Under the pieces are notes generated by a model that was not told the DNA's origin, searched no databases, and worked only from the letters and a program-made list of their open reading frames with translations. Below, in pieces: positions 15,838 to 48,064 of a stretch of 64,000 nucleotides of DNA. A program made the translations under genes and the position numbers. Every line of letters begins with the position of its first letter. Positions within the stretch are counted from its first letter, which is position 1. Source of the stretch: Phycisphaerae bacterium (GTDB lineage Bacteria > Planctomycetota > Phycisphaerae > UBA1845); the NCBI GenBank assembly GCA_029260025.1, contig JAJDDZ010000192.1, positions 1,495 through 65,494 on the forward strand. Direction: 5' to 3'.

Positions 15838-17810
15838 CCAGTACGGAGACTGTGATCGCACGTAACCGGCGCATTAGCGATGAACTTTTTTTGCGCAACA
15901 TGCGCGTGCTATGGCGGCGCGATCCTGCGCTGGCGGCGCGTGTTGACGCGGTTGATGACGTCGATCGCGTGGCTGTTGAGGCTGCCAGGAACGGCGATGC
16001 GACCGCACGCGTATCCTTGCCCGATGGGAACAGCGCGTATCTGCATAGTCGTCATCAGCCAGGCGCCGAGGCGAAGAAATGGGCGGATGCGATCGACCGG
16101 GAGGGGAATTTTTGTTTCGTTGTTTCGGGGATTGGGCTGGGGTATCACATTCGTGCCTTGTTCGATGATCTTCACGATGAGACGGTCGTTGTTTGCCTAG
16201 AGCCATCCATCGAATTGATGGCTACTGCGCTGACTTGTGTTGATTTTGCGGACCTGATCGACGCGGATCGTCTAATCTTTCTGGTGGACGATGATAAGAC
16301 GCGACTTCATGCACGATTACACAGGCACAGCACGCTCTTGATGCTCGGGACGCAGTTCGCCAAGCATGTTCCTTCTGTTCGTCGCGATGAGCCCGCGTAC
16401 AACCGAATTCACACCGCGTTGACGGAATTTGTGACGTACTCGCGGATGTCGCTGCTGACCCTGCTTGGGAATTCGCGGATTACTTGTAAGAACATCGCGA
16501 TGAATCTTCCCAATTATGTTGCGACGCCGCCGATTGATTTATTGCAGGATCGGTTTCGCGGTTGTCCAGGAATCGTCATCTCGGCTGGTCCTTCGCTGTC
16601 GAAGAATCTGGATCAGCTGGGCGCGCTCAAGGGCAAGGCGGTTCTTTGTGCGGTCCAGACAGCTCTTCGTCCGCTGACTCTGCGAGGGATCGTTCCTGAT
16701 TTTGTGACGAGCCTTGATTTTCACGAAATGTCGAGCAAGTTTTATGAGGGCGTGGAAGGTCTCGAGGATGTCCACCTTGTGGCAGAACCCAAGGCGACGT
16801 GGCATGTCACGGATACTTATCCCGGCCCGATGTCCCTATTGGATAATGAATGGGCGCGGCTGGTTGCTGGTGACGAGCTGGGTGGTCGAAGCGGGTTGAC
16901 GGCTGGGGCGACGGTTGCCCATCTTGCATTTTACCTAGCGGCGTATATGGGTTGCGATCCGATTATTTTCGTCGGGCAGGATCTGGCGTTTACCGGGCAT
17001 GTTTTTTACGTGCCCGGTGTTGAGATACATCGTGCGTGGCGGGGCGAGATCAACCGGTTCAATTCGATGGAGCAAAAGGAGTGGGATCGGATCGCTCGCA
17101 ATAGGCCTATCCTTCGCAAAGTTGTTGGGAATGATGGGTCGGAACTCTACACCGACGAATTGTTGTTCACATACTTGGAACAATTCGAAAAAGACATCCG
17201 TACGGTTCCCGCCACGGTCGTGAATGCGACCGAGGGTGGGGCGCGGATTCGTGGTACGTCGGTGATGTCGCTGGCGGATGCGACGGAGAAGTTTTGCAGA
17301 GGGCCGATTGATCCTGCGCTGTTTGAGTATCGAAAAGACGCGAATTGGTGGGACGAATCGAAGCTCGCTTCGCTGAAAGGCGTCTTGGAAAATCGCATTG
17401 CGTCTCTTGATGAGGTCGTGAAGGTTTGTGACGAACTGCTCGACTTATTCAAGGAACTGAGAGGTCTGACCGACGATCCCACGAAATTCAATAAAAAAAT
17501 TATTCGCGTGGACGAGCTTCGCGTGAAGGTTCATCAGGACACGCGTGCTTACGAGATGGTCAATGCCGCGACGCAGACGGCTGAGCTTCGGCGGTATCAC
17601 GCCGATCGAATGATTAGCGCCGCCGCAGGCGACGACGTTGAACGCGCGAAACGGCAGATTCGGCGCGACTCGGAGTTTATCGGCAGCGTCGGAACCGGTG
17701 CGCAAGATGTTCGGGAAATGCTCGAAGAAACGCTCCAACGGGTGAATGATCCTCCGCGTCGCAATGTTCCACTTTCGCGAGCAGAGAAAGACTCGGGGGT
17801 GTCGCTTTGA
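15834..17810 (+). CDS. Maf-like / DUF115 (MptE-like) family protein, putative glycosyltransferase
   Basis: 658 aa. The central block is GCPGIVISAGPSLSKNLDQLGALKGKAVLCAVQTALRPLTLRGIVPDFVTSLDFHE ... GATVAHLAFYLAAYMGCDPIIFVGQDLAFT, which I recall as the DUF115/motility-accessory-factor core. The start overlaps the aat stop (ATGA). Confidence 0.6.
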   Translation: MTSTETVIARNRRISDELFLRNMRVLWRRDPALAARVDAVDDVDRVAVEAARNGDATARVSLPDGNSAYLHSRHQPGAEAKKWADAIDREGNFCFVVSGIGLGYHIRALFDDLHDETVVVCLEPSIELMATALTCVDFADLIDADRLIFLVDDDKTRLHARLHRHSTLLMLGTQFAKHVPSVRRDEPAYNRIHTALTEFVTYSRMSLLTLLGNSRITCKNIAMNLPNYVATPPIDLLQDRFRGCPGIVISAGPSLSKNLDQLGALKGKAVLCAVQTALRPLTLRGIVPDFVTSLDFHEMSSKFYEGVEGLEDVHLVAEPKATWHVTDTYPGPMSLLDNEWARLVAGDELGGRSGLTAGATVAHLAFYLAAYMGCDPIIFVGQDLAFTGHVFYVPGVEIHRAWRGEINRFNSMEQKEWDRIARNRPILRKVVGNDGSELYTDELLFTYLEQFEKDIRTVPATVVNATEGGARIRGTSVMSLADATEKFCRGPIDPALFEYRKDANWWDESKLASLKGVLENRIASLDEVVKVCDELLDLFKELRGLTDDPTKFNKKIIRVDELRVKVHQDTRAYEMVNAATQTAELRRYHADRMISAAAGDDVERAKRQIRRDSEFIGSVGTGAQDVREMLEETLQRVNDPPRRNVPLSRAEKDSGVSL

Positions 17811-19471
17811 GGGTAATTGCGGCGCTTAATGCGAATTTGGACCGGACGCCGGTCGGGACGCGGAGTCGATTGGCAGACGAACTTGGCGGTGCAACGATTT
17901 TGGCGCGAACCGTCGAGCGCGTTTCTCAGATTTCGTCTATTGCCGGCGTTTTTGTGTTTTGCCCATCGGATCAGCTTGATCGGTGCGGCGCGATTCTGGC
18001 GCATACCCGCGCGACGACTTGCCAACACAACGCGGGTCCGCCGCCCTGGTCGAACTTGGTTTGTTCGGCGCGAAAATGGTCGCTCGACGGGTGGCGCGGC
18101 GGAATCGGTGGGGCGACATCGTTTGATGAATACACGGATGTCCGATTGATTGCCGGTCTGTTGGAAACGACTAAGGCTGATGCAGTCTTGTCGGTCCCGC
18201 CGGGGGCGGTTCTGTTCGACCCAGCCCTTGGCGAGAAGATCATTGATCATCGCAAAGCAATTGGCGAAGAGGCGAAGATGAGCTTCATTCAGGGTCCGCC
18301 AGGGTTGACCGCGGTGCTTTTGGATGCTGACGTGATTCGCGAACTTTCTGATAAAGCGCTGCCCATCGGTGCCATTTTTGGATACAAACCCGAGTCTCCG
18401 CAGAAGGATATGATTTTCGAGCCCTGTTGCTGTCCGACGTCTTCCGATGTTCGGTTTGGGACGGGTCGACTTATTGCGGACACGGATCGCGCAATCGCTC
18501 GGATTGAGCGGTTGTCATCTTCCAGGGCGAAACTATCCGCCGAGGCGATCGGTCGTCTCCTAATCGAAGAGGATGAACGCGGATGTGAAACTTTTCCTTA
18601 CGAAGTGGAGATCGAGCTTACGACCGATGACCCATATCCCTCTGGGGTTCTTCGCCCGCGTGGGTCGCGCGTTCCCACTCGTGGGCCCATCTCGATGGAG
18701 CATGTTCGCAAGGTTGCTTCGGAGCTTTCCGGACGGGACGACATTCTTTGCGTCCTAGGCGGTTTCGGCGATCCGCTTTGTCATCCGCAACTATCTGCCG
18801 TGCTGGAAGCACTAAGACCAAGCGAGTTGGCCGCGACCGGTGGCGGCGTCTTTGGACTTGCGGTTCGTACCTCGGCTGTCGATCTGACGGCTGAGGTCAT
18901 CGATATGTTAATCGCCCATCGCGTTGATGTTCTCAACGTCACGCTCGACGCCTGGACGCCGGAGACCTACCAGGATCTTCAAAGTCCCGGTGGTGAAATG
19001 ACTGCGAATCTTGACGCGGTGCTCGAAAGTCTCGATCGACTCGCCGCCGCCAAAGCCGATTGTCTGTCAGTGGCCCCCCTGGTTGTGCCCGAGTTCTGTA
19101 AATCGCGCGATAATCTTCATGAGCTGGACGATTTCTACGATGGATGGATGCAACGATTAGGCATCGCTTCGATCACCGGTTTCAATCACTTCGGGCAGCG
19201 TCTTGAAGATCGCGGCCTAATCAAGATGGCCCCCGCCGCTCGCACGCCATGTCGCCGGGTTCGGTCTCGGGCGTTGGTGCTTGCGGATGGCCGGGTGACG
19301 CTCTGCGATCAAGACTTCGAGGGGAAGCATACGATCGGAACGATCGAGGAATCGACGATGGGGGAGTTGTGGGCTGGTGAGTCGCTTTCGCAGGTGCGAG
19401 AAGCTCACGTCTCGGGTTCGGCGGAGCTGCCGGTGATCTGCGGATCTTGCGAGGAGTGGCATCGACCTTAG
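17807..19471 (+). CDS. fusion protein: SpsF/cytidylyltransferase-like N-domain plus radical-SAM-like barrel lacking the CxxxCxxC cluster plus SPASM/twitch-like C-terminus
   Basis: The TTG start overlaps the upstream stop (TTGA). The N-terminus MRVIAALNANLDRTPVGTRSRLADELGGATILARTVERV parallels the SpsF-type IIQARxGSTRLPGKxLxxLGGxPLL. The middle has ...EIELTTDDPYPSG... where rSAM enzymes carry CxxxCxxC, followed by LGGFGDPLCHPQ. The C-terminus is CRRVRSRALVLADGRVTLCDQDF...ICGSCEEW. Confidence 0.55.
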   Translation: MRVIAALNANLDRTPVGTRSRLADELGGATILARTVERVSQISSIAGVFVFCPSDQLDRCGAILAHTRATTCQHNAGPPPWSNLVCSARKWSLDGWRGGIGGATSFDEYTDVRLIAGLLETTKADAVLSVPPGAVLFDPALGEKIIDHRKAIGEEAKMSFIQGPPGLTAVLLDADVIRELSDKALPIGAIFGYKPESPQKDMIFEPCCCPTSSDVRFGTGRLIADTDRAIARIERLSSSRAKLSAEAIGRLLIEEDERGCETFPYEVEIELTTDDPYPSGVLRPRGSRVPTRGPISMEHVRKVASELSGRDDILCVLGGFGDPLCHPQLSAVLEALRPSELAATGGGVFGLAVRTSAVDLTAEVIDMLIAHRVDVLNVTLDAWTPETYQDLQSPGGEMTANLDAVLESLDRLAAAKADCLSVAPLVVPEFCKSRDNLHELDDFYDGWMQRLGIASITGFNHFGQRLEDRGLIKMAPAARTPCRRVRSRALVLADGRVTLCDQDFEGKHTIGTIEESTMGELWAGESLSQVREAHVSGSAELPVICGSCEEWHRP

Positions 19472-19704: not shown

Positions 19705-19900
19705 ATCTCTCTGCGAGGAGCCGGGGGAGGGAGCCGACGCTGGTTGACGACCAGGTCCCATGCAATGCGTGGTTCAGGCAACGGGTCAGACTGGAGACAG
19801 AGCAGCCCACTTGTTTCATTCAGGTGCCGTGGATCACCTGGTCGTCAACGAGCGCCGGCGGTATCCGGGGTGAATTTCGCGCCCGCTATTGTGGCGCTTG
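19705..19900 (+). ncRNA. ffs: signal recognition particle RNA (ends approximate)
   Basis: A 19-bp helix with one mismatch forms between 19738-19756 (cgctggttgacgaccaggt) and 19836-19854 (acctggtcgtcaacgagcg). Its apical part contains GUCAGACUGGAGACAGAGCAGCC (19785-19807) and GGUGCCGUGGAU. These resemble the 4.5S domain IV sequences GUCAGGUCCGGAAGGAAGCAGCC and GUGCCGGGAU. It sits immediately upstream of dnaX-ybaB-recR, as scr does in Bacillus subtilis. Confidence 0.65.
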
Positions 19901-19921: not shown

Positions 19922-21397
19922 ATGTCGTACCGCGTATTAGCGAGGGCCTACCGAAGTTCGACGTTCGATGAAGTCGTCGGGCAGGACGCCATTGCAACTA
20001 CGCTTAAAAATGCAATCACCGGCGGTCGCGTGCACCACGGGTACCTTTTTACCGGGACGCGCGGTGTTGGCAAAACGTCGATGGCCAGGATTCTCGCCAA
20101 GGCGCTCAACTGTCTTGCGTTTGATGATGCGACGGCTACTCCATGTCTTGAGTGCGATTCGTGCAAGGCGGTTTCGGAGGGCGAAGACGTGGACGTCGTC
20201 GAGATCGACGCCGCGAGCAACACCGGCGTTGATAACATTCGCGAGCTTCGCAGTAACGCGACGCTTCGCCCTGCCCGGGCACGTTTTAAGATATACATTA
20301 TCGACGAGGTTCACATGCTCTCGCCGGGGGCGTTCAACGCGCTTCTCAAGACTCTTGAGGAACCTCCCCCGCATGTGAAATTTATCCTCGCGACGACCGT
20401 GTCGCACAAGGTCCCCGCTACGATTCAGAGTCGGTGTCAGCGGTTCGACTTTCGGGCGATCGATGTGGATTCGATTACAGCCCACCTCGAGCGACTGATC
20501 CAGGCGGAGAAGATTGAGGCGGAAGACGGCGTTCTGCGCCGGGTGGCTCGCCTGGCGAACGGGTCGATGCGAGACGCTCTTTCGATTCTTGATAAGCTGC
20601 TGTCGTACGACGCGAAGCACCTAACGCGAGAGGTGACCGACCAGGTCATTCCGCCGCCTCACGACGAGCTATCGCTGGGGATTATTGATCGCGTTTCGGA
20701 GAATGACGCCGGTGGGGCGCTCAAGGCGCTCGACGACGCCCTTCAAACGGGTCGCACGGCTGAGCAGTTTTGCACTCACCTCATCGAACATCTGCGAACG
20801 CTAATGCTCCTGAACGTTTGCGGGGCGAAGACGGACTTGATCGACGTATCCACATCGATGCGCGAGACGCTTGTTGACCAATCGAACCGGTTCGACGCCC
20901 CGACCTATGTCTACATGATTACACTTTTGGAGGAGCTTCGTCGAAGCGTCAAATCCAGCGGTGCAGCCCGGGCACTGGCGGACGCTGCCGTTGTCCGGTT
21001 GGCGATGAGCGCTCGCTTTAGCGATATCAATGCGTTGATCGAACAGATCGATCAGCAAGCTCCGGGTGCTCTCGACGAATCGAATCAGCAAACGCTCCCG
21101 GCAAAAAAAAAAGGCCCTGACGTCGGACGGGTATTAGCTTCGTCACAATCCCCACTCGCCGAGGTTGTTCAGCCAGCGAAGTCGGCAGGATCTTCGAACG
21201 ACCATCACACGCGAGAAGTTGCAACACCAATTCCGACGCGTGTGAGTGAGGCAGAAACCAAGCCCTCTCCGGAAGAATGGCACGAGGCCTCGCGTGATCC
21301 GCTGGTGACACGCGTGAAAAACGCGGTGGATGGGACGCTCATGGACATCAAGCAGCGGACGATGCCGCAACCCGACAAGAACGATTCAAACGATTAG
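19922..21397 (+). CDS. dnaX: DNA polymerase III subunits gamma/tau
   Basis: MSYRVLARAYRSSTFDEVVGQDAIATTLKNAITGGRVHHGYLFTGTRGVGKTSMARILAKALNC, a Zn module CLECDSCKAV, and box VII SRCQRFDF. Start taken at ATG 19922 within ORF 19889..21397. Confidence 0.95.
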   Translation: MSYRVLARAYRSSTFDEVVGQDAIATTLKNAITGGRVHHGYLFTGTRGVGKTSMARILAKALNCLAFDDATATPCLECDSCKAVSEGEDVDVVEIDAASNTGVDNIRELRSNATLRPARARFKIYIIDEVHMLSPGAFNALLKTLEEPPPHVKFILATTVSHKVPATIQSRCQRFDFRAIDVDSITAHLERLIQAEKIEAEDGVLRRVARLANGSMRDALSILDKLLSYDAKHLTREVTDQVIPPPHDELSLGIIDRVSENDAGGALKALDDALQTGRTAEQFCTHLIEHLRTLMLLNVCGAKTDLIDVSTSMRETLVDQSNRFDAPTYVYMITLLEELRRSVKSSGAARALADAAVVRLAMSARFSDINALIEQIDQQAPGALDESNQQTLPAKKKGPDVGRVLASSQSPLAEVVQPAKSAGSSNDHHTREVATPIPTRVSEAETKPSPEEWHEASRDPLVTRVKNAVDGTLMDIKQRTMPQPDKNDSND

Positions 21398-46075: not shown

Positions 46076-48064
46076 CTAATCCGCCAGAACGCGACGATCT
46101 CCGTCGCGACGTGTGAAACCAACCCGGTCGAGGTATTCTAGAAAAGGAACCACAAACTTGCGACTAGAACCAAGCGCCACGCGAACCTCCGACACCGCAG
46201 CCCCTCCAGATTCCGCAACAAGCGCCGCGACCTTCGATCGCAAGTACGCTTCCATTTCCGCATGAAGATACATCTTCGGCGCAATTACCACCAGTTCCCC
46301 CATCGCAACAGCAAGCGTCGCAAGTCGCAAAACACGCTTCTTATCTGCCTGGGTACCGATTTTCACCGTGTCGAGCGTCGGCGGTTGGAACGCCCCCCCC
46401 TTGATCTCCGCGATCATCTCCGTAAGCAGTTTTTCGTCAGCTTTGCTAAGCTCCGGCGCAAACGACGGCGCACAAATGAATTTCCCGAAGTCTTTGACCG
46501 TCTTTTTCGCCACCAGCTGATCCAGCAGAGGTTTCGCGATAGCACGATGTCCCGTCACACGCTCGATCCATCCAACCACCGCGTCAAAAGGTCGCCCAGG
46601 TAGCTCTGGATGCGACCGATGATGACGCTCAAGCCACCGAACAAGTCGCCGCGAAACTTCCTCAACCGCGCCCGGCGTCGCCGTTACCTCCGACCCAGCC
46701 ACAGACCCGAGCCGTTTCGAAGAAACAAGCTCACCCATCAAACCCGAAAGCTCGTCAACTTCCACACCCGCCTGCCCGCAAAGTTGAAGCTCGGTCGGCC
46801 TCTCAAACCGATACCCTTCCAACACTTGCTCAACCCGATCAATCGGCGACCCCGTCTCAAGTTTCTGTAAGGATGCGAGTTGCTCGTTTGCTTCGCGCCT
46901 TCGACGCCGGGCTACAGGACGAACGACAACCCCCCCCCCAATCGTCCTCGATGCAGTCTCGTCTCGAATGATAAAACGTTGGCCATGAACGCTCGCGATC
47001 GGCGTCCCGCTTCGAAGTTGTGCATATCCCGACGCGCCAGGTTGGAGCGAAGAATCTCCGTAGAGCACAACGCGCACCGCAACCTCCGCCGTACCCAGCT
47101 CAAGTCGAACCTTCGTCGTAGATTTCAGAGGCCTAGGCGAAGAGGAAAGACAATCGAGTCGCACATCGAGCATCGGCGAAGGTTGCAAGTATCCCGGTGT
47201 CGCCAGTTCGCTACCGCGCTCGATCTGCCCGCGATCGATTCCACTAAGGTTGATCGCCGCCCGCTCCCCGCGCGCGAGCTGCTCCGTTGAACTGCCATGC
47301 GCTTGGAGATCGCGCACCCGACAAGTCGCACCCCCCGGAAACACCTCCAGTGAGTCACCCGATTGAACCTGCCCGCGAAGAACAGATCCAGTCACGACCG
47401 TCCCGCGACCTTGAATTGTAAAAACCCGATCGATCGCCATGCGAAAAGGGTTGCAAGTCTGTCCGCGAGAAATCTTCTCCGTCGCCGCTTCAAGTTGCCC
47501 TCGCAAAGCATCAAGCCCCGCCCCAGTAATCGACGACACCGGGCAGATCGGCGAATCCGCAAGCGGAGTCCCCGATAGAAACTCGCGAACATCCTCCGTG
47601 ACTAGCTCCACCATCGTTTCGTCAACCGTATCGATCTTCGTAATCGCAACCACCGCGTTCGTGATCCCAAGCAAATGCAGAATCTCGACATGTTCAATCG
47701 TCTGCGGCATGACAGAGTCATCCGCCGCAACCACCAACAGAGCAACGTCAATCCCCGTCGCCCCCGCGACCATTGTGCGAACAAACCGCTCGTGACCCGG
47801 CACGTCAACAACCCCAAAACGCACCTCATCGATCGACAGCTCGGCGAACCCCAGTTCGATCGTCATCCCCCGCTTTTTCTCCTCCGGAAGCCGGTCAGGG
47901 TTCGTCCCAGTCAGCGCACGGATCAGCGACGTCTTTCCGTGGTCGATATGCCCAGCCGTTCCCAAAATATAGCGCGTCCCTGAGGTCGCGGCGTCGGTTT
48001 CAAGCGCGGTCGTCACGCCGTCGATTATCAAACCAGTTACCTTCGCTGGCAAGTGGACACGCAA
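46076..48064 (-). CDS. selB: selenocysteine-specific translation elongation factor
   Basis: [27 protein letters not shown] and ITKID form the GTPase domain. C-terminal winged-helix repeats are present. The true start may be as late as TTG 47965, giving (M)[11 protein letters not shown]. Confidence 0.9.

Follow-up and report, generated by a model that had tools for sequence, protein, structure and literature searches.

We re-examine dnaX, the gene for the tau and gamma subunits of the bacterial clamp loader, on a 64,000-nucleotide (nt) stretch of a Phycisphaerae bacterium genome (phylum Planctomycetota; assembly GCA_029260025.1, contig JAJDDZ010000192.1, positions 1,495 to 65,494), hereafter the window. 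Shortly after the part of the gene that encodes the clamp-loader core, the coding strand carries a run of ten adenines (A10), and both shifted reading frames stop within a few codons of it. Judged from sequence comparison across the phylum, the run is very probably a functional tau/gamma recoding site. The fuller account, in which A10 is a selected signal that lets one dnaX supply two clamp-loader subunits by way of RNA polymerase slippage, is in our view probable, and slippage during transcription, rather than frameshifting by the ribosome, is likely to be the main route.

An initial annotation of the window, made from the letters alone, had named the gene dnaX, and profile and structure searches agree. 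The product scores 410.8 bits against TIGR02397 (cut-off 250) and 456.3 bits against NF004046 (cut-off 400) in NCBIfam, contains the Pfam domains PF13177 (DNA_pol3_delta2), PF22608 (ATPase lid) and PF12169 (gamma domain III), matches the E. coli gamma/tau structures with E = 4e-81, and is identical in sequence to database protein P0001. The names carried by its homologs agree with an origin in Phycisphaerae, Planctomycetota. On these matches the assignment to DnaX, the clamp-loader tau/gamma subunit with AAA+ core domains I-III, is firm. The gene and the elements that define the site are as follows:

19922-21397, plus strand: dnaX coding sequence; the zero frame is the tau-like full-length product of 491 amino acids (aa), from the ATG at 19922 to the stop codon at 21395-21397.

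21103-21112, plus strand: A10 slippery run, gcA AAA AAA AAA, covering residues A394 and K395-K397; proposed RNA polymerase slippage site.

21118-21120, plus strand: TGA of the -1 frame, two codons on (AGG CCC TGA); reached by A11 mRNA or by -1-shifted ribosomes.

21135-21137, plus strand: TAG of the +1 frame, after seven codons (GCC CTG ACG TCG GAC GGG TAT); reached by A12 or A9 mRNA.

Re-reading the site in the dnaX frame (gca aaa aaa aaa ggc cct gac, with a codon starting at 21101) confirms the run and both stops as the initial annotation had described them. Its estimate of about 400 aa for the product of either shift, against 491 aa for the full-length protein, likewise agrees with simulated transcripts: A11 would encode 399 aa (43.7 kDa) ending in ...AKKKRP, A9 would encode 404 aa (44.2 kDa) ending in ...AKKKALTSDGY, and A12 would encode 405 aa ending in ...ALTSDGY. 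Simulated A10 and A13 transcripts give 491 and 492 aa (53.6 kDa), the zero frame running 94 codons past A10 to its natural end.

The run lies at a boundary in the protein. Domain III ends at residue 375 according to PF12169 and is well folded to about residue 379 in an AlphaFold2 model built on 71 homologs (mean predicted local distance difference test score, or pLDDT, of 82), and A10 occupies codons 394-397, about 20 residues past domain III and at the start of a disordered linker. Two features follow it:

21113-21277, plus strand: hypervariable linker, residues 398-452, mostly predicted to be disordered; long product only.

21278-21352, plus strand: C-terminal motif W453-K477 (WHEASRDPLVTRVKNAVDGTLMDIK), with two short predicted helices; long product only.

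The model gives the linker a pLDDT below 50 over residues 396-443, and the linker shows no column conservation in the alignment of the 71 homologs or in a second alignment, of the 120 homologs that match best (59-100% identity). The C-terminal motif, with the consensus W..A.RDPLV.RVK.AVDGTL, is present in 113 of the 120; D459, P460, V462, A468, V469, G471 and L473 are invariant or nearly so among the 71, and helices predicted at 450-457 and 460-469 (pLDDT 64-84) coincide with it. The structured part of the C-terminal extension amounts to only about 20 residues. A shift at A10 would leave the clamp-loader core complete, while the linker and the conserved motif would be lost. The initial annotation had called the removed part tau-specific. 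The loss of a conserved C-terminal element stands, whereas the label finds no backing in homology to tau domains IV/V: residues 398-491 and a 26-sequence C-terminal profile gave no Pfam, NCBIfam or PDB-profile match, even with E values up to 10 allowed. We take PF12168 and PF12170 to be the Pfam accessions for these E. coli domains. A tau-specific role is suggested instead by position, conservation and the predicted two-helix motif, which is presumed to be a partner-binding element of tau.

The window by itself makes only a modest statistical case. A10 is its sole A or T run of at least nine, and the empirical decay of A-run lengths in the window makes a single A10 per 64 kb not extraordinary; a random codon boundary in the window has stops within two and seven codons in the two shifted frames with P of about 0.02. 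As the arrangement is on these grounds only mildly improbable, the case rests on its context and on its conservation in relatives. We collected 40 Planctomycetota dnaX loci from one-genome-per-species contigs, metagenomes and exact-protein contig look-ups; the look-ups supplemented a metagenome scan with the clade alignment, which returned only 12 loci and in which one back-translated pattern was unspecific. A run of seven to ten A's stands at the site in 35 of the 40 loci (A9 or longer in 27, A7-8 in eight), and A10, in the phase of the window, is shared by all five of the closest relatives retrieved (68-83% identity).

The stops are conserved along with the run. In single open reading frame (ORF) loci with A9 or longer, both shifted frames are closed within 12 codons in 23 of 24 cases and within eight codons in 17 of 24. 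The null frequency of such closure is 0.10 for whole genes and 0.12 for the same linkers, giving binomial tails of about 1e-22 and 1e-20. Lineages differ in which stop codon they use and in where it stands, which points to maintenance rather than to shared ancestry. The check that the initial annotation had proposed, for the A-run and the off-frame stops in related genomes, thus comes out strongly in favor of the site. The choice of lysine codons adds a third line of evidence: the AAA:AAG ratio is 56:25 in the linker and 123:257 in the remainder of these genes (odds ratio 4.7, p = 1.4e-9), and a bias limited to the linker places the constraint on the nucleotides and not on lysine.

The codon bias bears on whether the run has a programmed function at all. 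It could be a lysine patch that matters at the protein level, as a basic patch or a protease site, in which case any gamma would come from proteolysis, or a neutral homopolymer near which stops limit the damage from accidental slippage. The aligned site is KKK in 49 and KKN in 34 homologs, together 83 of the 120, in a linker that is otherwise unalignable, and five of the 40 loci lack the run; gamma is known to arise by proteolysis in Caulobacter (10.1101/2022.11.10.516041), and selection generally acts against slippery runs in coding sequence (PMC1088944). However, the strong preference for AAA over AAG is confined to the linker, the KKN variants retain A9, and the site falls in a predicted disordered, otherwise unconserved segment. 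Relatives with a two-ORF dnaX switch frame across the run with the C-terminal motif intact, which is incompatible with a purely protein-level or a neutral reading. We regard an absence of programmed function as quite improbable.

These two-ORF relatives also inform the functional reading directly. Six contigs from six samples (L102-L107) encode a DnaX (P0112/P0121) about 75% identical to that of the window in amino acids and 71% in nucleotides, and share the synteny ybaB-recR-rpoN. Gene calling splits their locus into a 401-aa dnaX and an orphan ORF of 78-89 aa. Over 1560 nt the contigs differ from one another by 0-3 nt, and each has A10 (L102:3675-3684). Their zero frame ends in ...EKKKNHLAVS*, and the -1 frame holds 114 codons including SDPLVERVMEAVKGTLLEVR, with the conserved motif intact. 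Since this downstream frame is intact and conserved, the long form is presumably still made, which would require a shift at an A10 that appears unstimulated; no downstream structure was found at the L102-L107 run (rank 0.44), and no in-frame tract-length variant of the protein was found in a collection of 15 billion sequences. Indirectly, this suggests that shifting at A10 is efficient in near relatives of the window. L097, with its run at L097:1263-1272, is 89% identical to L102 in nucleotides and shares this layout as far as its contig extends, which is to about 60 codons past the run, at the start of the C-terminal motif. Two Phycisphaerales metagenome-assembled genomes (MAGs) have a shorter run of A7 or A8 (L008:4134-4140, L009:4125-4132) and a zero-frame TGA one sense codon past it. 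Hairpins of -37 kcal/mol (L008) and -32 kcal/mol (L009) start 5-6 nt downstream of these runs, the TGA lies in the spacer, and the conserved motif is in the -1 frame. These two loci look like E. coli-style -1 frameshifting, yet yielding tau.

For the window, the proposed mechanism is as follows. RNA polymerase on the T10 template would realign the nascent A-tract and so produce mixed mRNAs with A10, A11, A12 and so on. The A10 and A13 mRNAs would be translated into a tau-like protein of 491 or 492 aa, with the disordered linker and the C-terminal helical motif, which is presumed to tether polymerase or another replisome partner. Any change of the tract that is not a multiple of three would run translation into one of the nearby stops, the TGA after two codons or the TAG after seven. 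The truncated products would be gamma-like, about 400 aa and about 44 kDa, with complete domains I-III and about 20 linker residues. That slippage occurs, that gamma accumulates and that the C-terminal motif has such a partner is what we infer from the sequence.

Four observations favor slippage as the route. The run exceeds what ribosomes need by three bases; relatives carry it in varying phase (16:9:2); the +1 frame is kept closed, which is relevant only if tracts of other lengths occur in the mRNA; and an in-phase A_AAA_AAG, a Shine-Dalgarno (SD)-like element, a 3' structure and an Rfam match are all missing at the site. Specifically, A_AAA_AAG is not present in phase at the window site, where the two in-phase heptamers are both A_AAA_AAA and the G opens the next codon. 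No SD-like element (GGAG, GAGG or AGGA) occurs in the 25 nt upstream of the run, which read ...aatcagcaaacgctcccggc. Downstream, the folding of 88 nt is unremarkable relative to shuffles (z = +0.38), as is that of 60 nt among control windows (rank 0.58), and no conserved structure was found in the close relatives of the window. No frameshift element emerged when the site was scanned against Rfam, the sole match being a minus-strand ctRNA at chance level (E = 0.45); a scan of the two-ORF relatives found no frameshift element either, only the signal recognition particle (SRP) RNA upstream of dnaX. The initial annotation had seen no convincing downstream hairpin and had leaned toward transcriptional slippage. 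The fold calculations uphold the former, and the Thermus-like anatomy of the site, together with the missing stimulators, supports the latter, slippage and gamma themselves being predicted from the sequence.

We also considered a terminator-like hairpin in the nascent RNA upstream of the run as a stimulator of slippage and rejected it, because it is not conserved and does not differ from controls. In the window, the 73 nt upstream of the run fold with z = -2.17, and their stem closes 1 nt short of it. The gap between hairpin and run in 27 loci shows no difference from control windows (p about 0.09-0.10), and RNAalifold on the six closest sequences gives -0.62 kcal/mol, with no convincing covariation.

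Across the relatives, stimulators accompany short runs. Strong 3' hairpins, defined as falling in the most stable tenth of control windows, follow five of eight A7-8 runs and four of 28 runs of A9 or longer (Fisher p = 0.013, Mann-Whitney p = 0.009), and the five short runs that carry a hairpin all stand in the heptamer phase. Two freshwater Planctomycetota MAGs (L023:4134-4140 and L026:4158-4164) have A7 with in-phase A_AAA_AAA G, a GGAGGA 8 nt upstream, hairpins of -32 kcal/mol (L023) and -39 kcal/mol (L026) (rank 0.00), and a -1 stop within one codon; each looks like a complete E. coli-type gamma cassette. As read from these sequences, slippage-type and E. coli-like solutions coexist in Planctomycetota, and the association of stimulators with short runs supports slippage for the long, unstimulated run of the window.

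Alternatively, the tau/gamma switch could be mainly ribosomal, with a -1 frameshift on in-phase A_AAA_AAA of an unedited A10 mRNA and termination at the TGA two codons later. Both in-phase heptamers of the window would allow it, and conservation is tighter for the -1 stop than for the +1 stop: the median distance in the 24 single-ORF relatives is 2 codons in the frame reached with one extra A and 6.5 codons in the other. E. coli-type cassettes exist in the related Planctomycetota L008, L009, L023 and L026, and even the Thermus gene has been credited with a translational frameshift signature (PMC4320859). However, stimulators are wanting both in the window, which has neither the SD-like element nor the 3' hairpin, and in its close relatives, where no structure is conserved, and A_AAA_AAA is far less shift-prone than A_AAA_AAG in E. 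coli (PMC5009743). A ribosomal switch also leaves unexplained why the runs are A9-10 and not A7, why their phase varies and why the +1 frame is closed as well in 23 of the 24 loci. We consider a mainly ribosomal switch unlikely.

The closest known slippage site is that of Thermus thermophilus dnaX, which reads GAG-A9-GCCTGA (Fig. S3, PMC3711429) and where RNA polymerase slippage yields mRNAs with extra A's (PMC1088944, PMC5009743). Stops 2 and 16 codons downstream, in both non-zero frames, give two gamma forms (PMC4320859), and the short product makes up about 50% (PMC1088944); the original work is that of Larsen et al. 2000 and Yurieva et al. 1997, as described in PMC1088944, PMC5009743 and PMC4320859. 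The window has the same sequence hallmarks: a sense-strand A-run of at least nine placed between the clamp-loader core and the C-terminal part of a single tau ORF, a G/C-rich context after it, and stops in both shifted frames, one of them a TGA two codons on. The short form is without some 80-95 aa of C-terminal extension in Thermus and would be so in the window, and neither site calls for a stimulatory hairpin. The window differs in having A10 instead of A9, in the distance to the second stop (7 versus 16 codons) and in belonging to the Planctomycetota, class Phycisphaerae; and whereas slippage in Thermus has been studied by experiment, the window site is known from sequence alone.

E. coli dnaX uses a -1 frameshift on A_AAA_AAG with a flanking SD-like element and a stem-loop (PMC3711429). 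The window shares with it the gene, the position past domain III, an A-rich slippery sequence and a gamma that would end one to two codons into the -1 frame, but it fails three of the four defining features of the cassette (in-phase A_AAA_AAG, SD-like element and hairpin); it is L023 and L026, not the window, that resemble E. coli. Two-ORF dnaX genes with poly-A, in which recoding is needed for tau, have been described in Chlorobi, Bacteroidetes and Coraliomargarita (Antonov et al. 2013, PMC3711429). The window has the A10 tract and its place in the gene in common with these, and the architecture itself recurs in L102-L107, L097, L008 and L009. Unlike them, the zero frame of the window reaches the end of tau, so that a shift would yield the short product.

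A third route to a short form acts after translation. Vass and Chien reportedly described in 2013 the processing of Caulobacter crescentus DnaX by ClpXP. The gamma of that species is a product of ClpXP processing (10.1101/2022.11.10.516041). The outcome, tau and a C-terminally truncated gamma from one gene, would be the same as that proposed here, but the Caulobacter route is post-translational proteolysis without a slippery sequence, which the window sequence neither suggests nor excludes.

A9-A11 runs with close off-frame stops also occur at the equivalent dnaX position (codons 376-423) in L038, L064, L066, L068, L070 and L071, which belong to Bacteroidota, Leptospira, a Clostridia MAG, Ignavibacteriota and Fibrobacteria; such a run is absent from about 40 Firmicutes loci of that set.

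The run could also be a matter of DNA and not of RNA, either as a mis-assembled tract or as a site of phase variation at which replication slippage switches between tau and gamma alleles. Homopolymers are hypermutable (PMC1088944), and single-ORF and two-ORF versions are both found among the relatives. Against this, A10 is identical in L095 and L096, which come from two samples, and in the six assemblies of the L102 species, and orthologs of 68-83% identity have kept the run at one length. An exact protein look-up for A8, A9, A11 and A12 variants of the window or of the L102 species found none among 15 billion sequences; since it covers assemblies, it speaks to DNA-level variation only and not to RNA. 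In addition, dnaX is an essential single-copy gene. We think an origin at the DNA level highly improbable.

Transcriptional slippage at a selected A10 remains our preferred account, and several points weigh against it. The length at which runs become slippery differs between bacteria (Baranov et al., PMC1088944), and with two in-phase A_AAA_AAA heptamers, unstimulated -1 ribosomal frameshifting may contribute. Neither E. coli tau domains IV/V nor any solved structure shows detectable homology to the C-terminal motif, so that a functional difference between the two products is assumed. The run-length/stimulator split is not clean, as L005, L006, L007 and L081 have A9 or longer together with stable downstream structures. 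The loci are phylogenetically related, and the binomial p-values given above overstate their independence. Finally, five of the 40 loci (L017, L018, L091, in which the gene is partial, L100 and L101) have no run of at least seven A's at the site, and the switch therefore appears to be dispensable in some lineages. At the aligned place L100 (P0007) reads ttgAGAAGAAGcgaa, possibly a decayed tract; L101 corresponds to P0015.

The surroundings of dnaX follow the classic arrangement, with gene order ffs, dnaX, ybaB, recR, rpoN. Upstream of dnaX lie:

19749-19846, plus strand: ffs (bacterial small SRP RNA), 44.4 bits against a gathering threshold of 40 when a 500-nt region was scanned alone.

17807-19471, plus strand: radical-SAM/SPASM protein, upstream of ffs-dnaX.

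A whole-window Rfam scan at the gathering threshold missed the ffs gene at 19749-19846. An SRP RNA gene adjoins dnaX upstream in L008, L009 and L011 as well. In relatives an MptE-like gene precedes the radical-SAM/SPASM gene, a synteny kept in L093 and L095. Promoter and terminator scans around the dnaX operon found nothing, and a scan of the 64-kb window found no tRNA genes. The two strands of the window are markedly asymmetric: the plus strand contains 23.7% A and 20.4% T, and 29.7% C and 26.3% G; runs of at least six number 39 for A and 13 for T, and 18 for C and one for G. The second ten-base homopolymer of the window is a C10 on the plus strand at 46930-46939, that is, a G10 encoding Gly-Gly-Gly in a minus-strand gene at 46076-48064 whose 662-aa product looks, by eye, like the selenocysteine elongation factor SelB.

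We found no report of a dnaX slippage site in Planctomycetota; the few papers in the literature searched that name dnaX together with Planctomycetes or Planctomycetota deal with other matters. Earlier work already covers the mechanism, the anatomy with both frames closed and the two-ORF variant, and also that slippage and frameshifting are interchangeable (PMC3711429, PMC5009743, PMC1088944). The window site is best read as a Thermus-type slippage site that would reveal no new mechanism and would not surprise a specialist. What the present analysis adds is comparative: a near phylum-wide signal, three architectures side by side, and E. coli-like cassettes outside Proteobacteria. There are practical consequences for annotation, too. 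The 401-aa 'dnaX' and the orphan 78-89-aa ORF in Phycisphaerae MAGs would be one recoded gene and not a pseudogene, and single-ORF dnaX genes in Planctomycetota probably encode two products.

Why bacteria retain gamma has yet to be settled (PMC4456610; 10.1101/2022.11.10.516041). According to a review, gamma made by frameshifting seems essentially confined to enterobacteria, and Thermus and Caulobacter stand as isolated alternatives (PMC4456610). A conserved tract with closed off-frames in a distant phylum would be independent evolutionary evidence that two DnaX forms are selected, and the sister lineages with E. coli-like cassettes or with a shift-dependent tau point the same way; these relatives are natural variants with which to test why gamma is kept. 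In a broader reading, to which we give an even chance, dnaX recoding is near-universal and evolutionarily fluid in Planctomycetota and takes three inter-convertible forms: a single ORF with A9-10; two ORFs with A10, in which the long and presumably essential tau is made by slippage only; and A7 with an SD-like element and a hairpin, yielding tau or gamma. If this is true, the tau:gamma balance would be under selection far outside Proteobacteria and Thermus, and the planctomycete RNA polymerase would slip on A10 at tens of percent, often enough to provide a core subunit of the replisome.

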